IMG/VR virus record: IMGVR_UViG_3300035565_000019
Location: 1 to 56,658 of that record
DNA length: 56,658 nucleotides
Reading direction: 5' to 3' (one strand)
Origin: a virus
Taxonomy: Duplodnaviria; Caudoviricetes
In this document: in pieces, positions 26,959-54,336 of the stretch
Position numbering within the stretch: position 1 is the stretch's first letter
Layout: each line of letters opens with the position of its first letter
The notes under the pieces: model-generated
Database searches by the model: none
Told to the model about the DNA's origin: nothing
The model's input: only the letters and a program-made list of their open reading frames with translations
Position numbers and translations under genes: made by a program

Positions 26959-27074
26959 CGCTCACCAAACTTATCACGGCCAAGCACTTCAACTATAATC
27001 CAGAAGAAAATATAAATGGCGTATGCTTGAAGTATTGTTGCTATTATAAAAAACTGGATAAGTTTGGCCAACAT
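26955..27074 (-). CDS. Small TM peptide
   Basis: 39 aa MLAKLIQFFIIATILQAYAIYIFFWII..., last gene of the - strand operon. Confidence 0.4.
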   Translation of the reverse strand: MLAKLIQFFIIATILQAYAIYIFFWIIVEVLGRDKFGER

Positions 27075-27087
27075 ATTTTTGATCCTT

Positions 27088-27522
27088 TCAATAATCATAT
27101 TGTAGTTTTTCCCATTTGCGTCCTGCCCGTAGCCAAAGGTCTTTAGGCAACGGATCTATATGCTCTTCCAGGAAGACAATACGGTTGCATGATGTGTTCA
27201 ACAGCAGCTTTAGGCATGGCCGGCAAGGGCTAATAGTGGTAAATACTGATTTTATAGTCCATGGATCTCGGCACTGAAGTATCATGTTCTGCTCTGCATG
27301 GACTGCAAGACATGAGTCTTGGCCTGGCGGTAATTCAAATCCTTTGCATGTATTTTTATTATCGCAGTGCTTTATGCCATGCGGGACTCCATTATAGCCA
27401 ATGCTAAGCACATACCCTCTGGCGTCTACTGCTACAGCACCAACGCTTCTTCGTATACAAGTTGCGCGGGTAGCTGCAATTCTAGCTAATGTCATAAAAT
27501 ACTGATCTTTAGTTGGTCTCAT
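27088..27522 (-). CDS. dCMP deaminase
   Basis: RATCIRRSVGA, GYNGVP, HAEQN and SPCRPC motifs. Confidence 0.9.
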   Translation of the reverse strand: MRPTKDQYFMTLARIAATRATCIRRSVGAVAVDARGYVLSIGYNGVPHGIKHCDNKNTCKGFELPPGQDSCLAVHAEQNMILQCRDPWTIKSVFTTISPCRPCLKLLLNTSCNRIVFLEEHIDPLPKDLWLRAGRKWEKLQYDY

Positions 27523-28088
27523 TCTTTCACCTCATGATCGAATATTGGAAATGGCCCAAGTCCCACAGCCGCGTCGTGGTTTGGCGCTACCCAGCCTGCC
27601 GGCTTTACAATATCCAGCTTAGACCCACGCTTTGACTGTGACGCATTCTCGACCCGTATCTTGGCCATATTGGCGCGCTGTACTTCATGCCACAACATAG
27701 GCCACGGAAGTCCCATCATCAATGCAGTACCATGCACTACATAGATTAAATCTACAAGCGCGTCAGCTGCTTCATGCATGTCACCCTTTGTATGTCCGTC
27801 TTCGAACTCGTTCAGCTCTTCCTGCATGAATTTCAGACGAAACTGGAATGCATCTTCCAGCAAGAAGGACGGCTCTTTTGCCATAGGTATCTCGAACTTC
27901 TGATGGAATGCCAGTACATCATTACGCTCTTTGAATGCGCCTACCATCGGGCGTACCATGGCTACTGGTTGCACGCCATTTCCATCACTAGTTCTGTCTT
28001 GCATTTCATTCAGCGCTGCTTCAACATCTTCTGCCAACTCGATGTCAGTCTTGTTAGTGTTGATTAGCACTGTCAATATTTTTTGCAT
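27519..28088 (-). CDS. MazG-like/PRA-PH-family all-alpha dNTP pyrophosphatase
   Basis: FMQEELNEF, ADALVDLIYV, EVQRANMAK and KPAGW motifs. Confidence 0.8.
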   Translation of the reverse strand: MQKILTVLINTNKTDIELAEDVEAALNEMQDRTSDGNGVQPVAMVRPMVGAFKERNDVLAFHQKFEIPMAKEPSFLLEDAFQFRLKFMQEELNEFEDGHTKGDMHEAADALVDLIYVVHGTALMMGLPWPMLWHEVQRANMAKIRVENASQSKRGSKLDIVKPAGWVAPNHDAAVGLGPFPIFDHEVKE

Positions 28089-28098
28089 GATTTTTCTC

Positions 28099-29466
28099 CT
28101 ATACGTTAAGCGGCGCTGAAACTGCCGCATGTGAAATGTAGTTTACCAGCTTTGCCTGCTCTGGTTTAAAGTTGAAGATTGTCGCTGCTGCATCAAGCTC
28201 CAGCTTCGGCCCTTTGATCTCTTCCCTTTCCAGCACTTCTCGCACTTGATCCTGGTGATTCAAATAGATGTGCGTATCGCCAAGGAAGAAAGTCAAGAAG
28301 CCACTGTTAAGGCCTAAGGATTGCGCCAAGAGACGCTGCAGAAGCGCATAGCTCGCTATGTCGAACGGCAAGCCTAAGAAGAGGTCTACAGAGCGCATAT
28401 ATACGGCCAGATCGAGCCTTTGGTTGTCTCCGATGAACGCCTGGAAGAACATATGACAAGGCGGCAGGCACATCTGACTTAGCTCCCCTGGGTTCCATGC
28501 AGTCACGATGTGGCGCCTTCCGTGCGGCTCTTTGCTCAGGCCTTCTACAAGATTGACAAGTTGGTCTACGTACTGCGCATGCTTTATTGTTTGCACATCC
28601 AGCAACTTAAAACCGTAGCGCGATTTAGCATTCTTTCGGCCTGTCCAAAGGTCACAAAAATTCTTCCCATCTATAGCTTGCTCCGCACAAAACTGATGCG
28701 GGTTTGTAAAGCTGAAAACCTCACCGTCTTCGCGCTCAACAGTATATTTAGTGCAGTCTTTTTTCGGGTGGTTATCTTCAGCAGACACCCAGGCACAATG
28801 CTCTGGCCCGTAACGGAATCCATCCCCTCGTGTATCTTTATCTAGCTGGTAAGCGTGGCTGTCAGCAGCGAGAATAGCCTCTGACCAACCTGGCAGCTTT
28901 ACAGCGTCTTCTGCAAAGGCCTCAAACTCAAGCCAGCGATTATGTACAAAAACGCCGCGAGCTCCATAGTAGGAATAGTTGCGACTATTCAAATTATAAC
29001 ACCGCGCCATCATTCCTTGCCATGTCTTGCCTAGTGGGTGGCTTGCTGAACCGCTGCCATTAGCGATGTTCAAAAATGTTAGCGCTATACCCTCTCGCAA
29101 TTTAGGCCTTGGCTGTTCACGCACTTGAGGCACAGGCCACTTGCGCCACATGTTCCCATAAATTCTGCCCAGGTCTCCTTCAAATCGTGCAAATGGCAGC
29201 CAATAAGGGGAGTTGCCGTTGCCGTCCCAAATAGTGCAACCCATTTTGTGGAAGTCTTCCAGGTTGTCATAACCTTGGAGAAAACAGGCTAGCTCGGCCT
29301 TTACCTGTTCGAATCCCAGTTTCTTCAATGTTACAGCCGGGAACGTCGTGTGATTATCGAACACCAGCTGTTCGCCGAATAAAGCATACGTACCTACGCC
29401 TGTGCGGTCCTGGCGCAGCTCCCCGAATTGCATAGTCTTTTCTAAAATCCTGCGCCATTGTTCCAT
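28099..29466 (-). CDS. thyA: Thymidylate synthase homologue (Asn-to-Asp variant) with an in-frame endonuclease insertion
   Basis: DRTGVGT, YG..WRKW, RRHIVTAWNP, LPPCH, RSVDLFLGLPFDIASY and GDTHIY motifs; ~187 aa insert. Confidence 0.9.
   Translation of the reverse strand: MEQWRRILEKTMQFGELRQDRTGVGTYALFGEQLVFDNHTTFPAVTLKKLGFEQVKAELACFLQGYDNLEDFHKMGCTIWDGNGNSPYWLPFARFEGDLGRIYGNMWRKWPVPQVREQPRPKLREGIALTFLNIANGSGSASHPLGKTWQGMMARCYNLNSRNYSYYGARGVFVHNRWLEFEAFAEDAVKLPGWSEAILAADSHAYQLDKDTRGDGFRYGPEHCAWVSAEDNHPKKDCTKYTVEREDGEVFSFTNPHQFCAEQAIDGKNFCDLWTGRKNAKSRYGFKLLDVQTIKHAQYVDQLVNLVEGLSKEPHGRRHIVTAWNPGELSQMCLPPCHMFFQAFIGDNQRLDLAVYMRSVDLFLGLPFDIASYALLQRLLAQSLGLNSGFLTFFLGDTHIYLNHQDQVREVLEREEIKGPKLELDAAATIFNFKPEQAKLVNYISHAAVSAPLNV
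28573..29133 (-). mobile_element. HNH-like homing endonuclease domain inserted in frame within the TS gene
   Basis: WQGMMARCY, YYGARGVFVHNRWLEFEAFAED and LDKD..G...YGPEHCAWVS..DN motifs; boundaries approximate. Confidence 0.75.
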
Positions 29467-29476
29467 CCAGTTCTCC

Positions 29477-29671
29477 TTATAAGTAACCAACGATTACGCC
29501 AACTGGTGGCACAAATATACCGATAATGCGAAGCGCAAGCAAGCCAACGTGGCCTGCTAAGTCTTCTGTTGCTAGCTTATAAATGTTATCTCCATAGCCA
29601 AACAGAGCAGCTGTTAAAATGCACATTATCAGCAGCAGCCCAATTATATTACTCCAGTCATCTGATTTCAT
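29477..29671 (-). CDS. Small two-TM membrane protein
   Basis: RBS AAGGAG; RIIGIFVPPVGVIVGY motif. Confidence 0.6.
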   Translation of the reverse strand: MKSDDWSNIIGLLLIMCILTAALFGYGDNIYKLATEDLAGHVGLLALRIIGIFVPPVGVIVGYL

Positions 29672-29689
29672 TTTGTCTCTCCTTTATTT

Positions 29690-29827
29690 TTAGCCGTAGC
29701 CGCCACCGCTGCCGCTGCCGCTGCCGTCGCCGTCGCCGTAGCCGTAGCCGCTGCCGTCGCCGTTGCCGTAGCCGTAGCCTATGCCTATGCCTATGCCTAT
29801 GCCTATGCCTATGCCTATGCCTGCCAT
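29690..29827 (-). CDS. 45 aa Gly-X repeat peptide, MAG(IG)7YGYGNGDGSGYGYGDGDGSGSGSGGGYG
   Basis: Read manually; ATG overlaps the end of the upstream gene, TAA at 29690-29692. Confidence 0.6.
   Translation of the reverse strand: MAGIGIGIGIGIGIGIGYGYGNGDGSGYGYGDGDGSGSGSGGGYG
29777..29821. repeat. Perfect hexamer microsatellite (GCCTAT)x7
   Basis: Directly visible; continues as a degenerate GCCGNN array down to 29693. Confidence 0.95.
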
Positions 29828-30183
29828 ACTTTCACACTCGCAATAGACGCTTGCGCCTTGGTTGTACAGTCCAGCAATTCAATCGCGTTCAACAATTCAG
29901 CACGATTTACCTCGCAAGGGAATTTACAGGCATTCGGCTTTGAGAATCCATCCGTAGCCGCTTGAGATAGGCTGGCAGCGCCCTCCCAATACCAGAGACG
30001 TCGAGCCTTACGCAGGACAACCTCTTGTCCATTTCTAGACTCAAGATAGCCGGCAAAAACTCCTGCTGACTGGGTTCTGCAAATAATATACTTCATGCCA
30101 TTAAGCTCTGGCGCTTTATTGCTGACTGAATCAGCGCGAACATACTTTACTTCGTCAATCATAATACTTTCAGGTTTACTCAT
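29815..30183 (-). CDS. DUF6948-like protein
   Basis: ICRTQSAGVFAG and ARRLWYWEGAASLSQ motifs; family recalled as preceding Gly-rich repeats. Confidence 0.6.
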   Translation of the reverse strand: MSKPESIMIDEVKYVRADSVSNKAPELNGMKYIICRTQSAGVFAGYLESRNGQEVVLRKARRLWYWEGAASLSQAATDGFSKPNACKFPCEVNRAELLNAIELLDCTTKAQASIASVKVWQA

Positions 30184-30184
30184 T

Positions 30185-30790
30185 TTACTCTTTCCTTTCT
30201 TGAGCAGCTACAAAAAAGCCTGCATAGTTGATAATGTCCAAAGCCGTATCTCGTAAGCCTTCGAAGCTAGCAGCTTCAGGCTTCTTGGCTAGCGAGATGA
30301 AGCGCTGCGACTTCGTATGCAACATCTGCGCATATGATACGGCGCCAAATGGAAAGTACGGCGAGCGATCTACTTTATGTATGTCTTTATGGCCCATTCC
30401 TTGGTTATAGTCCTGACTTTTACGCACGCATAACAATGCCGCTTCTGCTAACGCCCCAGGATGCCCGCCTCGAGAAGCAAGTTCAGTCAACAACACTACT
30501 GAATCAATAGTGCTTAACTGCCCGGCCAAGAGCGCTGTAACACGCATTTCGGCCTCTGCGCAGTCCATATTTGCTAATCTCTTAAGCCTGAGTTGTTTTT
30601 CTGACAACCATATACATGATCCAACAGGATACTGCCTTTCGTTATTGGTAGTAGTTAGGCGGCACTCTACCCCGTCATTTTGACTAGCAAGCTGAACGAC
30701 AAGCCCCTCAACAGGGATTGCCATCCGATAGCGGTCGTATATAATGACTTCAGAATCTACTTTGAACTGCCCACTATGATAGGCATTCAT
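30185..30790 (-). CDS. Protein with a C-terminal nucleotide-modification-associated domain (DUF1599/Nmad1-like)
   Basis: RKSQDY, HTKSQRF and EGLRDTALDIINYA motifs. Confidence 0.65.
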   Translation of the reverse strand: MNAYHSGQFKVDSEVIIYDRYRMAIPVEGLVVQLASQNDGVECRLTTTNNERQYPVGSCIWLSEKQLRLKRLANMDCAEAEMRVTALLAGQLSTIDSVVLLTELASRGGHPGALAEAALLCVRKSQDYNQGMGHKDIHKVDRSPYFPFGAVSYAQMLHTKSQRFISLAKKPEAASFEGLRDTALDIINYAGFFVAAQERKE

Positions 30791-36875: not shown

Positions 36876-37346
36876 TTATTTTCCTAAATATTTAATGGCT
36901 TTTTTCAAAGCTAAAGGGTTATCTTTAAAATTACCAAGCCCTTTATTGCAATTTTGGCATAAAAGCCCTCTAATGCGGGCTGTAACATGGCAATGGTCTA
37001 TTGCTAAAGCTTGTTTTAAGTTAGCTTGATTAATTCCGCAAATTGCACAACAACTTTTTTGCTTATCTAACAAGGCAATATATTGCTTAGAGGTAATACC
37101 GTACTTGGATTTTCTAGCGGCGTCTCTATAATATTGCGCCCCTCGTGCTTTATAACTTGCTTGCCGCTTTTCTGGATTAGCTTCATTATATGCTTTAGAC
37201 ATAGCATTAGCTTTACCAGGATTAGCTACCATCCATTTTGCTAGCCGAATTTTTTGACATAGCGGGCATGCTTTATTAGCGCTATATCTTTTACCGTTAA
37301 GCTTTACATGCTTAGCACATATTTTACCTAAGTAAAATTCAGTCAT
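36876..37346 (-). CDS. Free-standing endonuclease VII-type homing endonuclease
   Basis: CAICG, IDHCH and RGLLCQNCNKGLG motifs; AT-rich. Confidence 0.85.
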   Translation of the reverse strand: MTEFYLGKICAKHVKLNGKRYSANKACPLCQKIRLAKWMVANPGKANAMSKAYNEANPEKRQASYKARGAQYYRDAARKSKYGITSKQYIALLDKQKSCCAICGINQANLKQALAIDHCHVTARIRGLLCQNCNKGLGNFKDNPLALKKAIKYLGK

Positions 37347-50520: not shown

Positions 50521-52084
50521 TATGACTATGAATGAAGCAATAGAATTTTGGGATACTATTGACGATGGTGGCAAAGATTTAGGGGGAATACGCGCCTTGT
50601 GCCTGACCGACAGGTTCTACCTGCTCGTCAAGGTGTGCAACCGTATCGACATGCTCCATCCATGGATTTATGCGCGTTGCCGCGAAGTGGAGAAGGCGCC
50701 AGGCGGGTTCATAGACCTGTGGGCGCGGGAGCATTACAAGTCGACCATCATCACGTTCGGCGGGTCGATACAGAGGATCCTGCAGAACCCGGAAATAACC
50801 ATCGGCCTGTTCAGCCACGTGAATTCGATAGCGGCCGACTTCCTGCGGCAAATCAAGGTAGAGCTCGAGACCAACCAGACGCTCAAGACAGTCTTCTCCG
50901 ACATATTATGGCAAGACCCTCAGCGCCAGGCGCAACGCTGGTCAGTCGATGGCGGCCTGGTCGTTAAGCGTAAGACAAACCCGAAAGAAGCGACGATGGA
51001 AGCGTCAGGCCTGGTCGACGGCATGCCGACAGGCAAGCACTTCCGGCTGCGCATATATGATGACGTCGTAACGGACAAATCCGTCTACACCCCTGAACAG
51101 ATCACGAAGACGACAGACGCCTACTCCCTTTCGCAATCCCTTGGTATCGAGGGCGGCGATGAATGGATGATAGGCACGCGGTACTCATATGCCGATACAT
51201 ACGAATGGATATTGAAGCGCGGGGCACTGAAGGCCAGGATCTATGCGGCCACGAACACAGGTCTACGCGATGGCAAGCCTATCCTCTTCTCGCAGGAAGA
51301 GTGGAATAAGCGCTTGCTAAAGAACACCGACAACGATATCGCATGTCAATACCTCCAAAACCCTTTGAGTGGACAGCAACGGATGTTTGATGTCGGTGAC
51401 TTACAAACATATGAAGTGCGGCCTGAGACGCTGGCTATCTATATCATGTGCGACCCGGCCAGGTCGAAGAAGAAAGAATCTGCCAATACCGCGATGGTCG
51501 TTGTTGGCGTCGACTACGCCATGAACAAATATCTCGTGGACGGCATCAACCATAAGATGGACCTCAAGGAAAGATGGGAAAATTTCGCGATGCTTTACAT
51601 GCGATGGAAGCAGATGCCTGGCGTGCAGATCGTGAAGATGGGCTATGAGTCATTCGGTGCGCAGGCCGATATGGATTACTTCAAAGAACAAATGATGATG
51701 CCTGGCCGTCCCTCTTTCGAGATAACTGAGTTACAATGGCCACGTGATGGCGACGGAAGCAAGATCGATCGCGTGCAACGGCTGGTACCGGATATGAAGT
51801 CCCACAAGATATTCCTACCATATCCATCCGATGATAACAGGCTGACGTCTAACCAGCGCAGCATGGCGGCAAGCGGGTATGACTACCGCATCAGCAGGCC
51901 GATCAAGCGCGTCGACGAGAACGGAAACATGTATGACCTGTCCGAACAGTTGAAGATGCAGTTCCATTACTTCCCGTTCGGCGGGCTGAAAGATATCATC
52001 GATGCGCTGGCGCGCATATATGATATGGAGCCTAAGGCTCCAAATTACAGGGAGCCCCGCTATGCGGAGCCCGAATACACATGA
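50507..52084 (+). CDS. terL: Terminase large subunit
   Basis: WAREHYKST (Walker A variant), TGKHF..IYDD, IGTRY, QYLQNP, CDPA and DIIDALA motifs. Confidence 0.9.
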   Translation: MRHLDMTMNEAIEFWDTIDDGGKDLGGIRALCLTDRFYLLVKVCNRIDMLHPWIYARCREVEKAPGGFIDLWAREHYKSTIITFGGSIQRILQNPEITIGLFSHVNSIAADFLRQIKVELETNQTLKTVFSDILWQDPQRQAQRWSVDGGLVVKRKTNPKEATMEASGLVDGMPTGKHFRLRIYDDVVTDKSVYTPEQITKTTDAYSLSQSLGIEGGDEWMIGTRYSYADTYEWILKRGALKARIYAATNTGLRDGKPILFSQEEWNKRLLKNTDNDIACQYLQNPLSGQQRMFDVGDLQTYEVRPETLAIYIMCDPARSKKKESANTAMVVVGVDYAMNKYLVDGINHKMDLKERWENFAMLYMRWKQMPGVQIVKMGYESFGAQADMDYFKEQMMMPGRPSFEITELQWPRDGDGSKIDRVQRLVPDMKSHKIFLPYPSDDNRLTSNQRSMAASGYDYRISRPIKRVDENGNMYDLSEQLKMQFHYFPFGGLKDIIDALARIYDMEPKAPNYREPRYAEPEYT

Positions 52085-52581
52085 CTCTTAAATTTTTTAT
52101 TGGAAAAATTTGTAAAAAGCACCCTGAACTGCAGGGCAGGCGGTATGTTAACCGCAAAATTTGCCCTGCTTGTAGCAAAGAGCAAGCTAAAGCTTTTGCA
52201 ACTGCTAACCCAGAAAAAATTAACGTAAAACGGCCTGCTTGGAATGCTGCAAATCGAGAAAAAGTAAATGCTTATAGCCGCACAAAGAGTAAAGAGCAAG
52301 TTAAAAATACGCGCTTAAAAAATGGATACGGCATTACCTTAGCAGATTATAATAAAATGTTTGAAATACAGGGCGGCTGTTGTATGATATGCAAAAGGCA
52401 CCAAAGCGTTTTAAAGCGGCCTTTAGCTGTCGATCATTGTCATGTAACAAATAAAATAAGGGGGCTTCTTTGCGCTAACTGTAACCCTATGTTAGGCTTT
52501 GCAAAAGACAGCGTTGAAACTTTACAAGCAGCAATTAAGTATTTAGGAGACTCAAATGGCAGGAGCATTAAACCAAAATAA
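52081..52581 (+). CDS. Free-standing endonuclease VII-type homing endonuclease
   Basis: CMIC, VDHCH and RGLLCANCN motifs; AT-rich. Confidence 0.85.
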   Translation: MTLKFFIGKICKKHPELQGRRYVNRKICPACSKEQAKAFATANPEKINVKRPAWNAANREKVNAYSRTKSKEQVKNTRLKNGYGITLADYNKMFEIQGGCCMICKRHQSVLKRPLAVDHCHVTNKIRGLLCANCNPMLGFAKDSVETLQAAIKYLGDSNGRSIKPK

Positions 52582-53796: not shown

Positions 53797-54336
53797 ATGA
53801 AAGTTACTTGCTTACAATGTAAGATTGAGTTTGAAAAGCCCGCTTGTCACGTTAAGCGAGTTAAAAAAGTATTTTGCTCTAAAAAATGTTATGATGAATA
53901 TCAGACAATTTTTAAAGGTAAAACTTGTGAAATTTGTGGAGATATTTTTAAAATTAAAGGCAATATGTCGCGCTATGTAACATGCGATAAAGAAGATTGT
54001 CGTGCAAAGAAAAAGCAAAAAGAAAATAATGGCATGTGGAATGGCGGTATTTCGTCTGTAAGCCAAAGATTTTATGCGACAGCAAAATATAAAAAATGGC
54101 GGGAAGCAATATTTAAGCGCGACAATTATACTTGTCAGTTTTGCGGTGTACGAGGCGGCATATTAAATGCAGATCATATTCAACCCCAAACATTTTTCCC
54201 AGAGTTAAGATATGACTTAGCTAATGGAAGAACGCTATGCTTAGAATGCCACAAAACAACATATAAATTAGCCTGCTCATACAGAGATAAGCAGAGAGCA
54301 CAAGGAGGCAGCAATGGCAATAGACCAGCGAAATAA
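53797..54336 (+). CDS. Free-standing HNH endonuclease with N-terminal zinc fingers
   Basis: FCSKKC, WREAIFKRDNYTCQFCG, ADHI and NGRTLCLECH motifs. Confidence 0.85.
   Translation: MKVTCLQCKIEFEKPACHVKRVKKVFCSKKCYDEYQTIFKGKTCEICGDIFKIKGNMSRYVTCDKEDCRAKKKQKENNGMWNGGISSVSQRFYATAKYKKWREAIFKRDNYTCQFCGVRGGILNADHIQPQTFFPELRYDLANGRTLCLECHKTTYKLACSYRDKQRAQGGSNGNRPAK

Follow-up and report, generated by a model that had tools for sequence, protein, structure and literature searches.

An in-frame insert in a phage thymidylate synthase-family gene as a probable homing element persisting without splicing

What kind of element interrupts, in frame, the only thymidylate synthase (ThyA)-family gene of a phage genome, and how can it persist there? 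The window analysed here, that is, the whole stretch of 56,658 bp (IMG/VR record IMGVR_UViG_3300035565_000019), is a complete phage genome: it has direct terminal repeats, and its estimated completeness is 100%. It holds one ThyA-family gene (28099..29466, minus strand) and no ThyX gene, and within this gene 187 codons (28573..29133, minus strand) separate two stretches of the enzyme. Homing endonuclease genes are thought to survive in essential genes only by way of self-splicing introns or inteins, or else between genes. The analysis described below favours, with a probability of approximately 0.68, a homing element that targets thyA and is maintained, unspliced, as a folded surface domain tolerated by the enzyme. 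A preliminary description of the locus had proposed a homing element tolerated as such a fusion; the sporadic distribution, inserts more alike than the cores that carry them, a travelling flank, the lack of a splicing signature and a confidently predicted fold fit this part of it, but the HNH identity that it gave to the nuclease is not supported.

The insert as part of the gene product

A single minus-strand open frame covers 28099..29490 (463 amino acids counted from TTG 29490, the numbering used hereafter). The ATG at 29466 is the likely start codon and gives a protein of 455 amino acids, which is the length of the database copy, and relatives begin MEQW. The product matches PF00303 (ThyA) with an E-value of 1.3e-77, and the match is split over two stretches. 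In an alignment with a solved ThyA (PDB 3qj7), residues 12–122 correspond to chain residues 5–106 and residues 306–462 to chain residues 108–263, with ∼183–187 residues occupying the place of about one loop residue of an ordinary ThyA. The N-terminal core (residues 9–119, 29134..29466, minus strand; chain residues 5–106 of 3qj7 and PF00303 positions 2–105) ends in WRKWP. The insert (residues 120–306) opens with V-P-Q and closes with H-A-Q-Y ahead of VDQL, where the C-terminal core begins (residues 307–463, 28102..28572, minus strand). The latter includes the catalytic Cys345 (28456–28458), and the fold family and catalytic residues of PF00303 (the Cys in PPCH, the Arg pair, Ser/Asp and His/Tyr) are all present in the window enzyme. 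An alignment of 36 insert-bearing ThyAs was assembled from 37 matches, the window's own copy (P0004) being replaced by P0001 and a 310-residue fragment (P0037) left out. Throughout this alignment the ThyA residues R29, R325, C345, H346, R366, S367, D369, H407 and Y409 are invariant, and R326 is nearly so. A megablast search of 27000–30500 against phage records gave zero matches. Among the sequencing runs listed for it, none is of RNA, and three DNA runs with small shares (0.07–0.12) gave only short contig pieces, one of which, a 266-base contig, spans the junction between insert and C-terminal core with one difference.

I then looked for signs that the insert is removed from the message or from the protein. 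A covariance-model search of 27500–30200 on both strands with Rfam found no intron at E ≤ 10, its three matches (snoR66, CC0196 and isrG) being at chance level, and Pfam found no Hint or intein family in the gene product at E ≤ 1. Among the 36 aligned ThyAs, no Cys, Ser or Thr is conserved at the N-terminal junction and no His-Asn with a following nucleophile is found at the C-terminal one. Instead, a conserved Pro-rich linker opens the insert and a short variable stretch closes it ahead of [VI]DQ, the frame is open throughout, and conservation at the protein level spans both junctions. The preliminary description had claimed an in-frame insert of ∼187 amino acids between WRKWP and VDQL, no intein signature (N-terminal Cys/Ser, terminal His-Asn) and no group I intron, for which it proposed a covariance-model search; all of this agrees with the results just given, the Pfam and junction-column data included, and the limits that it set for the insert are exactly codons 120–306.

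Two further ways of reading the gene were considered. Five alternative-frame open reading frames over it have no PHROGs match at E ≤ 0.01 and no credible Pfam match at E ≤ 1, the sole Pfam match (CitMHS_2, E 0.26) being at chance level and far under the cut-off. Expression of the insert alone from an internal start was considered and rejected, as the first Met of the insert comes after the conserved W157 and no convincing ribosome-binding site was seen by eye at the junction.

Structure prediction with AlphaFold2 (AF2) gives a predicted local distance difference test (pLDDT) score of 93.3 for the insert alone and of 91.0 for the whole protein, in the model of which the ThyA core is at high confidence. 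Predicted as a homodimer, the protein adopts the canonical ThyA dimer with a score of 0.82, against 0.00 for the best of three controls. Of 30 proteins solved as homodimers, 20 attain this score; of 23 solved as single chains, one does. At least 85% of the contacts agree between runs and the partner pLDDT is at least 85, a pass that may reflect likeness, ThyA dimers being already solved. Since the predicted interface takes in the junction residues 117–125 and the insert residues 167–184 and 223–230, the two inserts would lie near the two-fold axis. The fused enzyme would keep working, and the insert would stay unspliced in the product.

It is very unlikely, in my view, that the insert is removed from RNA or protein by a mechanism that current models miss. 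The insert does lie in the only ThyA-family gene of the phage, related inserts occur in apparently chromosomal bacterial thyA genes, and one might expect so large an insert next to the dimer interface to do harm. However, cryptic splicing of this kind would have to leave no Rfam intron at the permissive threshold used, no Hint domain, and neither a junction nucleophile nor a terminal His-Asn. It would also have to accommodate protein-level conservation through both junctions in 36 sequences, and an insert and host core that are predicted to fold confidently and to dimerize as one protein. Two relatives, P0063 (871 amino acids) and P0168 (909 amino acids), further illustrate this point: both are ThyAs with the insert plus a canonical LAGLIDADG intein at profile position ∼141–144, and in contrast to the insert this intein is readily detected by Pfam. 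As insert and intein are both present, these two genes contain two different mobile elements.

Distribution of the insert

A HMMER search with the insert against 1.84 billion representative proteins (of 50%-identity clusters) gave 21,703 matches at E ≤ 0.001, 508 at E ≤ 1e-10 and 13 at E ≤ 1e-30. Of the 149 best matches, which were examined with the window's own protein excluded, 68 carry PF00303 (43 of 70 and 25 of 79). In these 68, the ThyA is interrupted at one site, Pfam profile position ∼104–106, and no host family other than ThyA was found among the 149. The remaining relatives are free-standing proteins of ∼100–660 amino acids, the nearest being open reading frames of 140–320 amino acids, and they are annotated as homing endonucleases. 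Similarly, at E ≤ 1e-8 the insert has matches in 211 phage records, for the most part in free-standing genes labelled “HNH endonuclease”. The insert-bearing ThyAs span T4-like, jumbo and environmental phages as well as Deinococcus-type ThyA, and the insert family would be specialised on a single thyA site, the loop after the YGxQWRxW motif.

Within the window's own lineage, the insert is sporadic. The best 119 relatives of its C-terminal core (identity up to 71%) are all insert-free, with lengths of 269–318 amino acids; none of the insert-bearing ThyAs is among them, and their core identity to the window is at most 55%. In trees built without the insert columns, the window is nested among insert-free rows with support 99/89, the nearest being P0199 (76–77% identity); the insert-free rows of the first tree were every third of the 119 relatives, and the careful tree groups the window with two insert-free rows. 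All six syntenic metagenomic phage contigs, whose neighbouring proteins are 39–74% identical to those of the window, have an insert-free ThyA in a shared arrangement of DNA polymerase, exonuclease and helicase genes, followed further on by ThyA, MazG (in five of the six, L089 having no match) and dCMP (deoxycytidine monophosphate) deaminase genes.

Close pairs of alleles with and without the insert were found in an independent clade of Deinococcus-type ThyAs. The cores of the insert-bearing P0032, P0033 and P0034 are respectively 92%, 98% and 96% identical to those of the insert-free P0309, P0329 and P0312, each pair having a support of 100, and the insert-free partners include ThyAs named Deinococcus antarcticus and Deinococcus sp. 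Between the three insert-bearing proteins, the cores are 79–81% alike and the inserts 87–90.5% alike. Forcing these three into one group costs 238 log-likelihood units and is rejected (approximately unbiased test, p-AU 3.9e-29). Because their cores are 92–98% identical to named Deinococcus ThyAs, these insert-bearing genes are probably bacterial chromosomal ones; a scan of genome contigs with P0032 gave at least 80 insert-free ThyA loci, with no Deinococcus-type insert allele among the matches listed.

The flank travels with the insert. P0032, P0033 and P0034 share WNWRKWG at the junction, and their insert-free partners read [VF]QWRSWP. More generally, 226 of 236 insert-free ThyAs (111 of 119 and 115 of 117) keep the Gln of YGxQWR, against 7 of 36 insert-bearing ones; in the window, it is replaced within codons N113-M114 (29149..29154, minus strand), as it is in most insert-bearing alleles. 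This loss suggests either that a short flank was co-converted or that the altered sequence shields the filled allele against renewed cutting. In addition, the GC content at third codon positions of the window gene is 0.449 in the insert, compared with 0.577 and 0.599 for the core parts on either side. Several features of a homing element are seen here: sporadic occurrence among close alleles, a single site, a history discordant with that of the host gene, and a flank that appears to have been co-converted. The insertion-free alleles that the preliminary description had called for thus exist, both in syntenic phages and, at 92–98% core identity, in the Deinococcus-type clade. It had also held that an insert dead and fixed across the clade would speak against its view; in this clade the insert is not fixed, and its invariant residues are kept.

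Several points temper this picture. The window, P0005 and P0007, all insert-bearing, are rejected as a monophyletic group (p-AU 1.5e-5), but this trio was named after the first tree had been seen. Across the 630 pairs of the 36-sequence alignment, mean pairwise identity is 51% for the insert and 46% for the core, which speaks against decay of the insert, but the comparison is biased by the fact that the set was gathered through insert similarity. Divergence of the insert is in some pairs much greater than that of the core (P0014 and P0030, with cores 95% and inserts 70% identical; P0006 and P0039, with cores 71% and inserts 46% alike). Finally, the insert tree broadly mirrors the host clades, which implies either transfer mostly among related alleles, as homing needs, or in part descent with loss; some of the distribution could therefore reflect vertical descent with repeated, precise loss.

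Three loci with other forms of interruption were noted. In the td gene of phage RB49 (L001 1501–2733, 410 amino acids), the insert is degenerate, with D-S-D in place of the D-K-D motif described below, most core motifs lost and no helix-turn-helix tail; the same degenerate insert is found across the Krischvirus-type isolates listed (∼30 records), and looks like a decayed, retained remnant. In the thyA of Klebsiella phage KP13-7 (L002 1501–3054, 517 amino acids), the insert is longer and includes the small N-terminal beta-rich domain of free-standing relatives, and a whole protein of the free-standing type has therefore been inserted in frame. In a third locus (L158 7001–8520), ThyA is matched in three pieces, the N-terminal part twice (residues 9–56 and 7–121), which may represent a different kind of interruption or a duplication.

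The putative nuclease core and its DNA-binding tail

The insert consists of a Pro-rich linker with a conserved lead-in (29041..29133; consensus P..IPQPKPKLREG..TYLGVGNG.G, the lead-in being also present in free-standing relatives), a conserved core module that is the putative catalytic domain (28756..29040), and a tail (residues 240–302, 28585..28773), all on the minus strand. The predicted fold of the tail superposes on residues 115–174 of the I-HmuI structure (PDB 1u3e) with a Z-score of 7.0 and a root-mean-square deviation of 2.1 Å over 60 residues. A profile of the family, built from the insert and 48 relatives picked as free-standing (at least one of which, P0147, proved to carry PF00303), matches residues 108–170 of the same protein at E 1.7e-8. 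The corresponding Pfam family, PF22083 (I-HmuI-type NUMOD-like), is detected in 14 of the 149 relatives, with the window's own tail under the Pfam threshold. The last ∼60 residues of the insert are the C-terminal helix-turn-helix DNA-binding domain of I-HmuI type, and the DNA-binding tail of the preliminary description is confirmed by both profile and fold.

The core module is characterized by the motifs W..M..RCY, YG.RGV, W..F..F..D, LDKD and C.W...N. Its residues W157, R163, C164, Y165, Y175, G176, G179, V180, W186, D195, D217, K218, D219 and Y227 are invariant in all 36 insert-bearing ThyAs. In an alignment extended by free-standing relatives to 62 sequences, the Y, G, G, W, D-K-D and Y positions are still invariant. 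The D217-K218-D219 motif (28834..28842, minus strand) is present in 36 of 36 and 62 of 62 sequences, and its conservation reaches at least 90% in a set of 49 relatives, most of them free-standing; N240 is conserved in at least 90% of the sequences in the insert alignments. Since the window's insert keeps all the residues that are invariant in free-standing relatives, it is, judged by its sequence, not decaying. In the relatives, this core is found beside NUMOD1, NUMOD3 and I-HmuI-type modules with no other catalytic domain in those proteins, which makes it the natural candidate for the nuclease; the D-K-D core would then be the nuclease of these proteins.

Several results on this core weigh against a nuclease-encoding element. 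HNH enzymes have a catalytic His, and the D-K-D..C.W...N pattern may resemble the HNH motif with this His replaced. There is no invariant His in the insert, in either the 36- or the 62-sequence alignment, and no HNH model of Pfam or NCBIfam matches it at E ≤ 1. Searches of the PDB with the predicted fold gave no clear match for the core (insert residues ∼22–120), the tail filling the match lists, and comparison of the family profile with the phage's own HNH protein (53797–54336) in hhalign gave no match (probability 0.15). In the full-length model only, the strands 214–217 and 233–236 are followed by a helix at 237–244; this helix, which would complete a beta-beta-alpha motif, is missing from the model of the insert alone and has the lowest pLDDT (71–76). 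Lastly, in P0055, P0069, P0084, P0089 and P0090, all free-standing, the core occurs in two to three copies per protein, and such repetition, being more usual for DNA-binding modules, weighs against a catalytic role.

NCBIfam has no family at all for the insert, and none of the 149 relatives has an HNH family at E ≤ 1e-5 or 1e-6. The sole backing for the HNH label comes from PHROG families labelled “HNH endonuclease” (phrog_2081, E 1.5e-35), and the HNH-like nuclease of the preliminary description is thus not borne out. Fold comparison gave PacI at a Z-score of 3.5 and, with Foldseek, an alignment to I-HmuI over 119 columns (E 0.046). The nearest clusters of the ESM Atlas, either unnamed or with NUMOD families on a minority of members, provide no more than leads. 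Two other nuclease families were considered for the core and rejected: for GIY-YIG, the would-be GIY stretch is predicted helical, and for PD-(D/E)xK, the D/E-x-K spacing is missing. Stretches that resemble, by eye, AP2-type repeats come after both cores of P0055.

These observations bear on the most serious alternative, namely that the insert is a domesticated or passive DNA-binding domain, a pseudo-nuclease moved by ordinary recombination or by breaks made in trans, which may serve its host, for instance by tethering the enzyme to DNA or by regulating its own gene. I regard it as unlikely, but it would account for the absence of both a catalytic His and a nuclease model match, for cores in tandem, and for the degenerate, tail-less D-S-D copy of the RB49 td type being found across many of the Krischvirus-type isolates listed. 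Moreover, two endonuclease VII-like genes of the window phage, and its HNH gene, could act in trans. What it does not readily explain is the Deinococcus-type clade, where inserts 87–90% alike in hosts 79–81% alike, together with alleles at 92–98% identity that have no insert, need either a drive or a very frequent, targeted transfer into one site. In addition, the invariance of D-K-D, the Asn and further polar residues throughout tens of diverse relatives suggests an active site, and the free-standing relatives consist of the core and NUMOD modules only, with no second catalytic domain.

The insert family is therefore best explained as a large and mobile one of the homing-endonuclease type, in which a D-K-D core is followed by an I-HmuI-type NUMOD helix-turn-helix tail. 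As a homing element in thyA, it would operate as follows. The element carries no intron or intein; it would be translated within the enzyme, which would tolerate it as an additional folded domain in a loop next to the dimer interface. Alone or as a dimer, the fusion would recognise an insert-free thyA near the YGxQWR/DQL coding sequence by means of the helix-turn-helix tail. The D-K-D core, possibly paired in the ThyA dimer, would be the nuclease that makes the break. The insert-free thyA, broken near the site, would be repaired from an insert-bearing allele, and the insert would be copied together with a few flanking codons.

A bolder proposal goes beyond this, and I put it forward tentatively, with the odds somewhat against it. 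Homing endonuclease genes may have a third way of living inside essential genes, as a permanent in-frame domain of the target enzyme with no splicing. The D-K-D core would be an unrecognised nuclease domain, perhaps a His-less HNH derivative, and the obligate enzyme dimer would pair two nicking modules by its two-fold axis to produce a double-strand break. Such elements would be active today, in phages and in thyA genes of bacterial chromosomal type.

Neighbouring genes and comparison with known systems

In ThyA, an Asn reads the uracil of the substrate and thereby distinguishes enzymes specific for deoxyuridine monophosphate from dCMP hydroxymethylases. The window enzyme has an Asp at this position (Asp377, 28360–28362, in PFDIASY), as do 9 of 9 members of the insert-free clade. 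A MazG-like nucleotide pyrophosphohydrolase gene (27519..28130, minus strand) lies directly downstream and is syntenic in five of the six insert-free relatives; a dCMP deaminase gene (27088..27522, minus strand) is also syntenic in insert-free relatives. Asp377 and the conserved order of these two downstream genes suggest that the enzyme is directed at cytosine, as a dCMP methylase or hydroxymethylase, and is part of a modified-base pathway. The preliminary description had speculated that a nuclease tethered to a base-modifying enzyme could cut unmodified DNA of competitors or of the host, and the shared Asp and the genes alongside could be taken in its favour. However, only 6 of the 36 insert-bearing ThyAs have Asp at this position; the other 30, Deinococcus-type alleles included, have Asn, and the Asp-type clade is overwhelmingly insert-free. 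A link between the insert and base modification is therefore not supported, and I regard it as the most improbable of the alternatives discussed here.

Other features of the genome were noted. Two endonuclease VII-like open reading frames, beside the DNA polymerase and large terminase genes, and an HNH one (36876–37346, minus strand; 52081–52581, plus strand; 53797–54336, plus strand) are probably further free-standing genes of the homing type. Just upstream of the ThyA gene, a 45-codon open reading frame (29690–29827, minus strand) over a hexanucleotide repeat encodes almost wholly Gly with Ile, Tyr, Asp and Ser (GIGIGI.., GYGYG..), and 29690–29828 was also flagged as a repeat in read mapping.

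If confirmed, a homing element of this kind would widen the range of selfish-gene life styles, and provide a natural case of a large domain insertion tolerated beside an enzyme dimer interface. It would also point to a very large uncharacterised phage family, widely labelled “HNH endonuclease” without the catalytic His (the 21,703 representatives at E ≤ 0.001), whose activity would become testable on a defined target, the insert-free thyA. For annotation pipelines, it would mean that over-long ThyA genes are not necessarily errors or pseudogenes. No description of an in-frame ThyA insert was found in the openly accessible full-text literature searched.

The element is best read as a homing endonuclease gene with an unusual, splicing-free and in-frame way of persisting, distinct from introns and inteins. 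Closest by gene are the group I intron of T4 td, with I-TevI, and the ThyA inteins, in which the host product is restored by RNA or protein splicing. Like the insert, these are directed at conserved coding regions of this gene family, and flanking markers are co-converted, but the insert has neither splicing signature and occupies another site (Pfam profile position ∼105). Closest by domain is I-HmuI, the HNH homing endonuclease of the DNA polymerase intron of Bacillus phage SPO1 (PDB 1u3e), which is likewise modular, with an N-terminal core followed by a homologous C-terminal helix-turn-helix tail. Unlike I-HmuI, however, the insert has no surrounding group I intron and is embedded in frame in the product of its target gene, and its core has no HNH model match, with D-K-D in place of the HNH catalytic His.

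The closest precedent for the mode of insertion is the ShiLan insertion in an actinophage DNA methylase gene, which is readable in frame, has no recognisable intron or intein, evolves sporadically in an intein-like manner and is proposed to form a tolerated loop (Arsenault, Gosselin and Gogarten 2025, PMC11855218). Both are in-frame-readable insertions inside a phage enzyme gene. They differ in that, by the same account, ShiLan encodes its HNH endonuclease in a different reading frame, whereas the in-frame product of the ThyA insert is itself endonuclease-like; they also have different host genes and nuclease-like families, and a different breadth (here phages and bacterial-type ThyA). Finally, the seg and mob free-standing homing endonuclease genes of T4 are described as homing without an intron and with co-conversion of flanking sequence (review, PMC2988022). 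Such free-standing genes lie between genes, whereas the ThyA insert lies within its target's coding sequence and depends on read-through.

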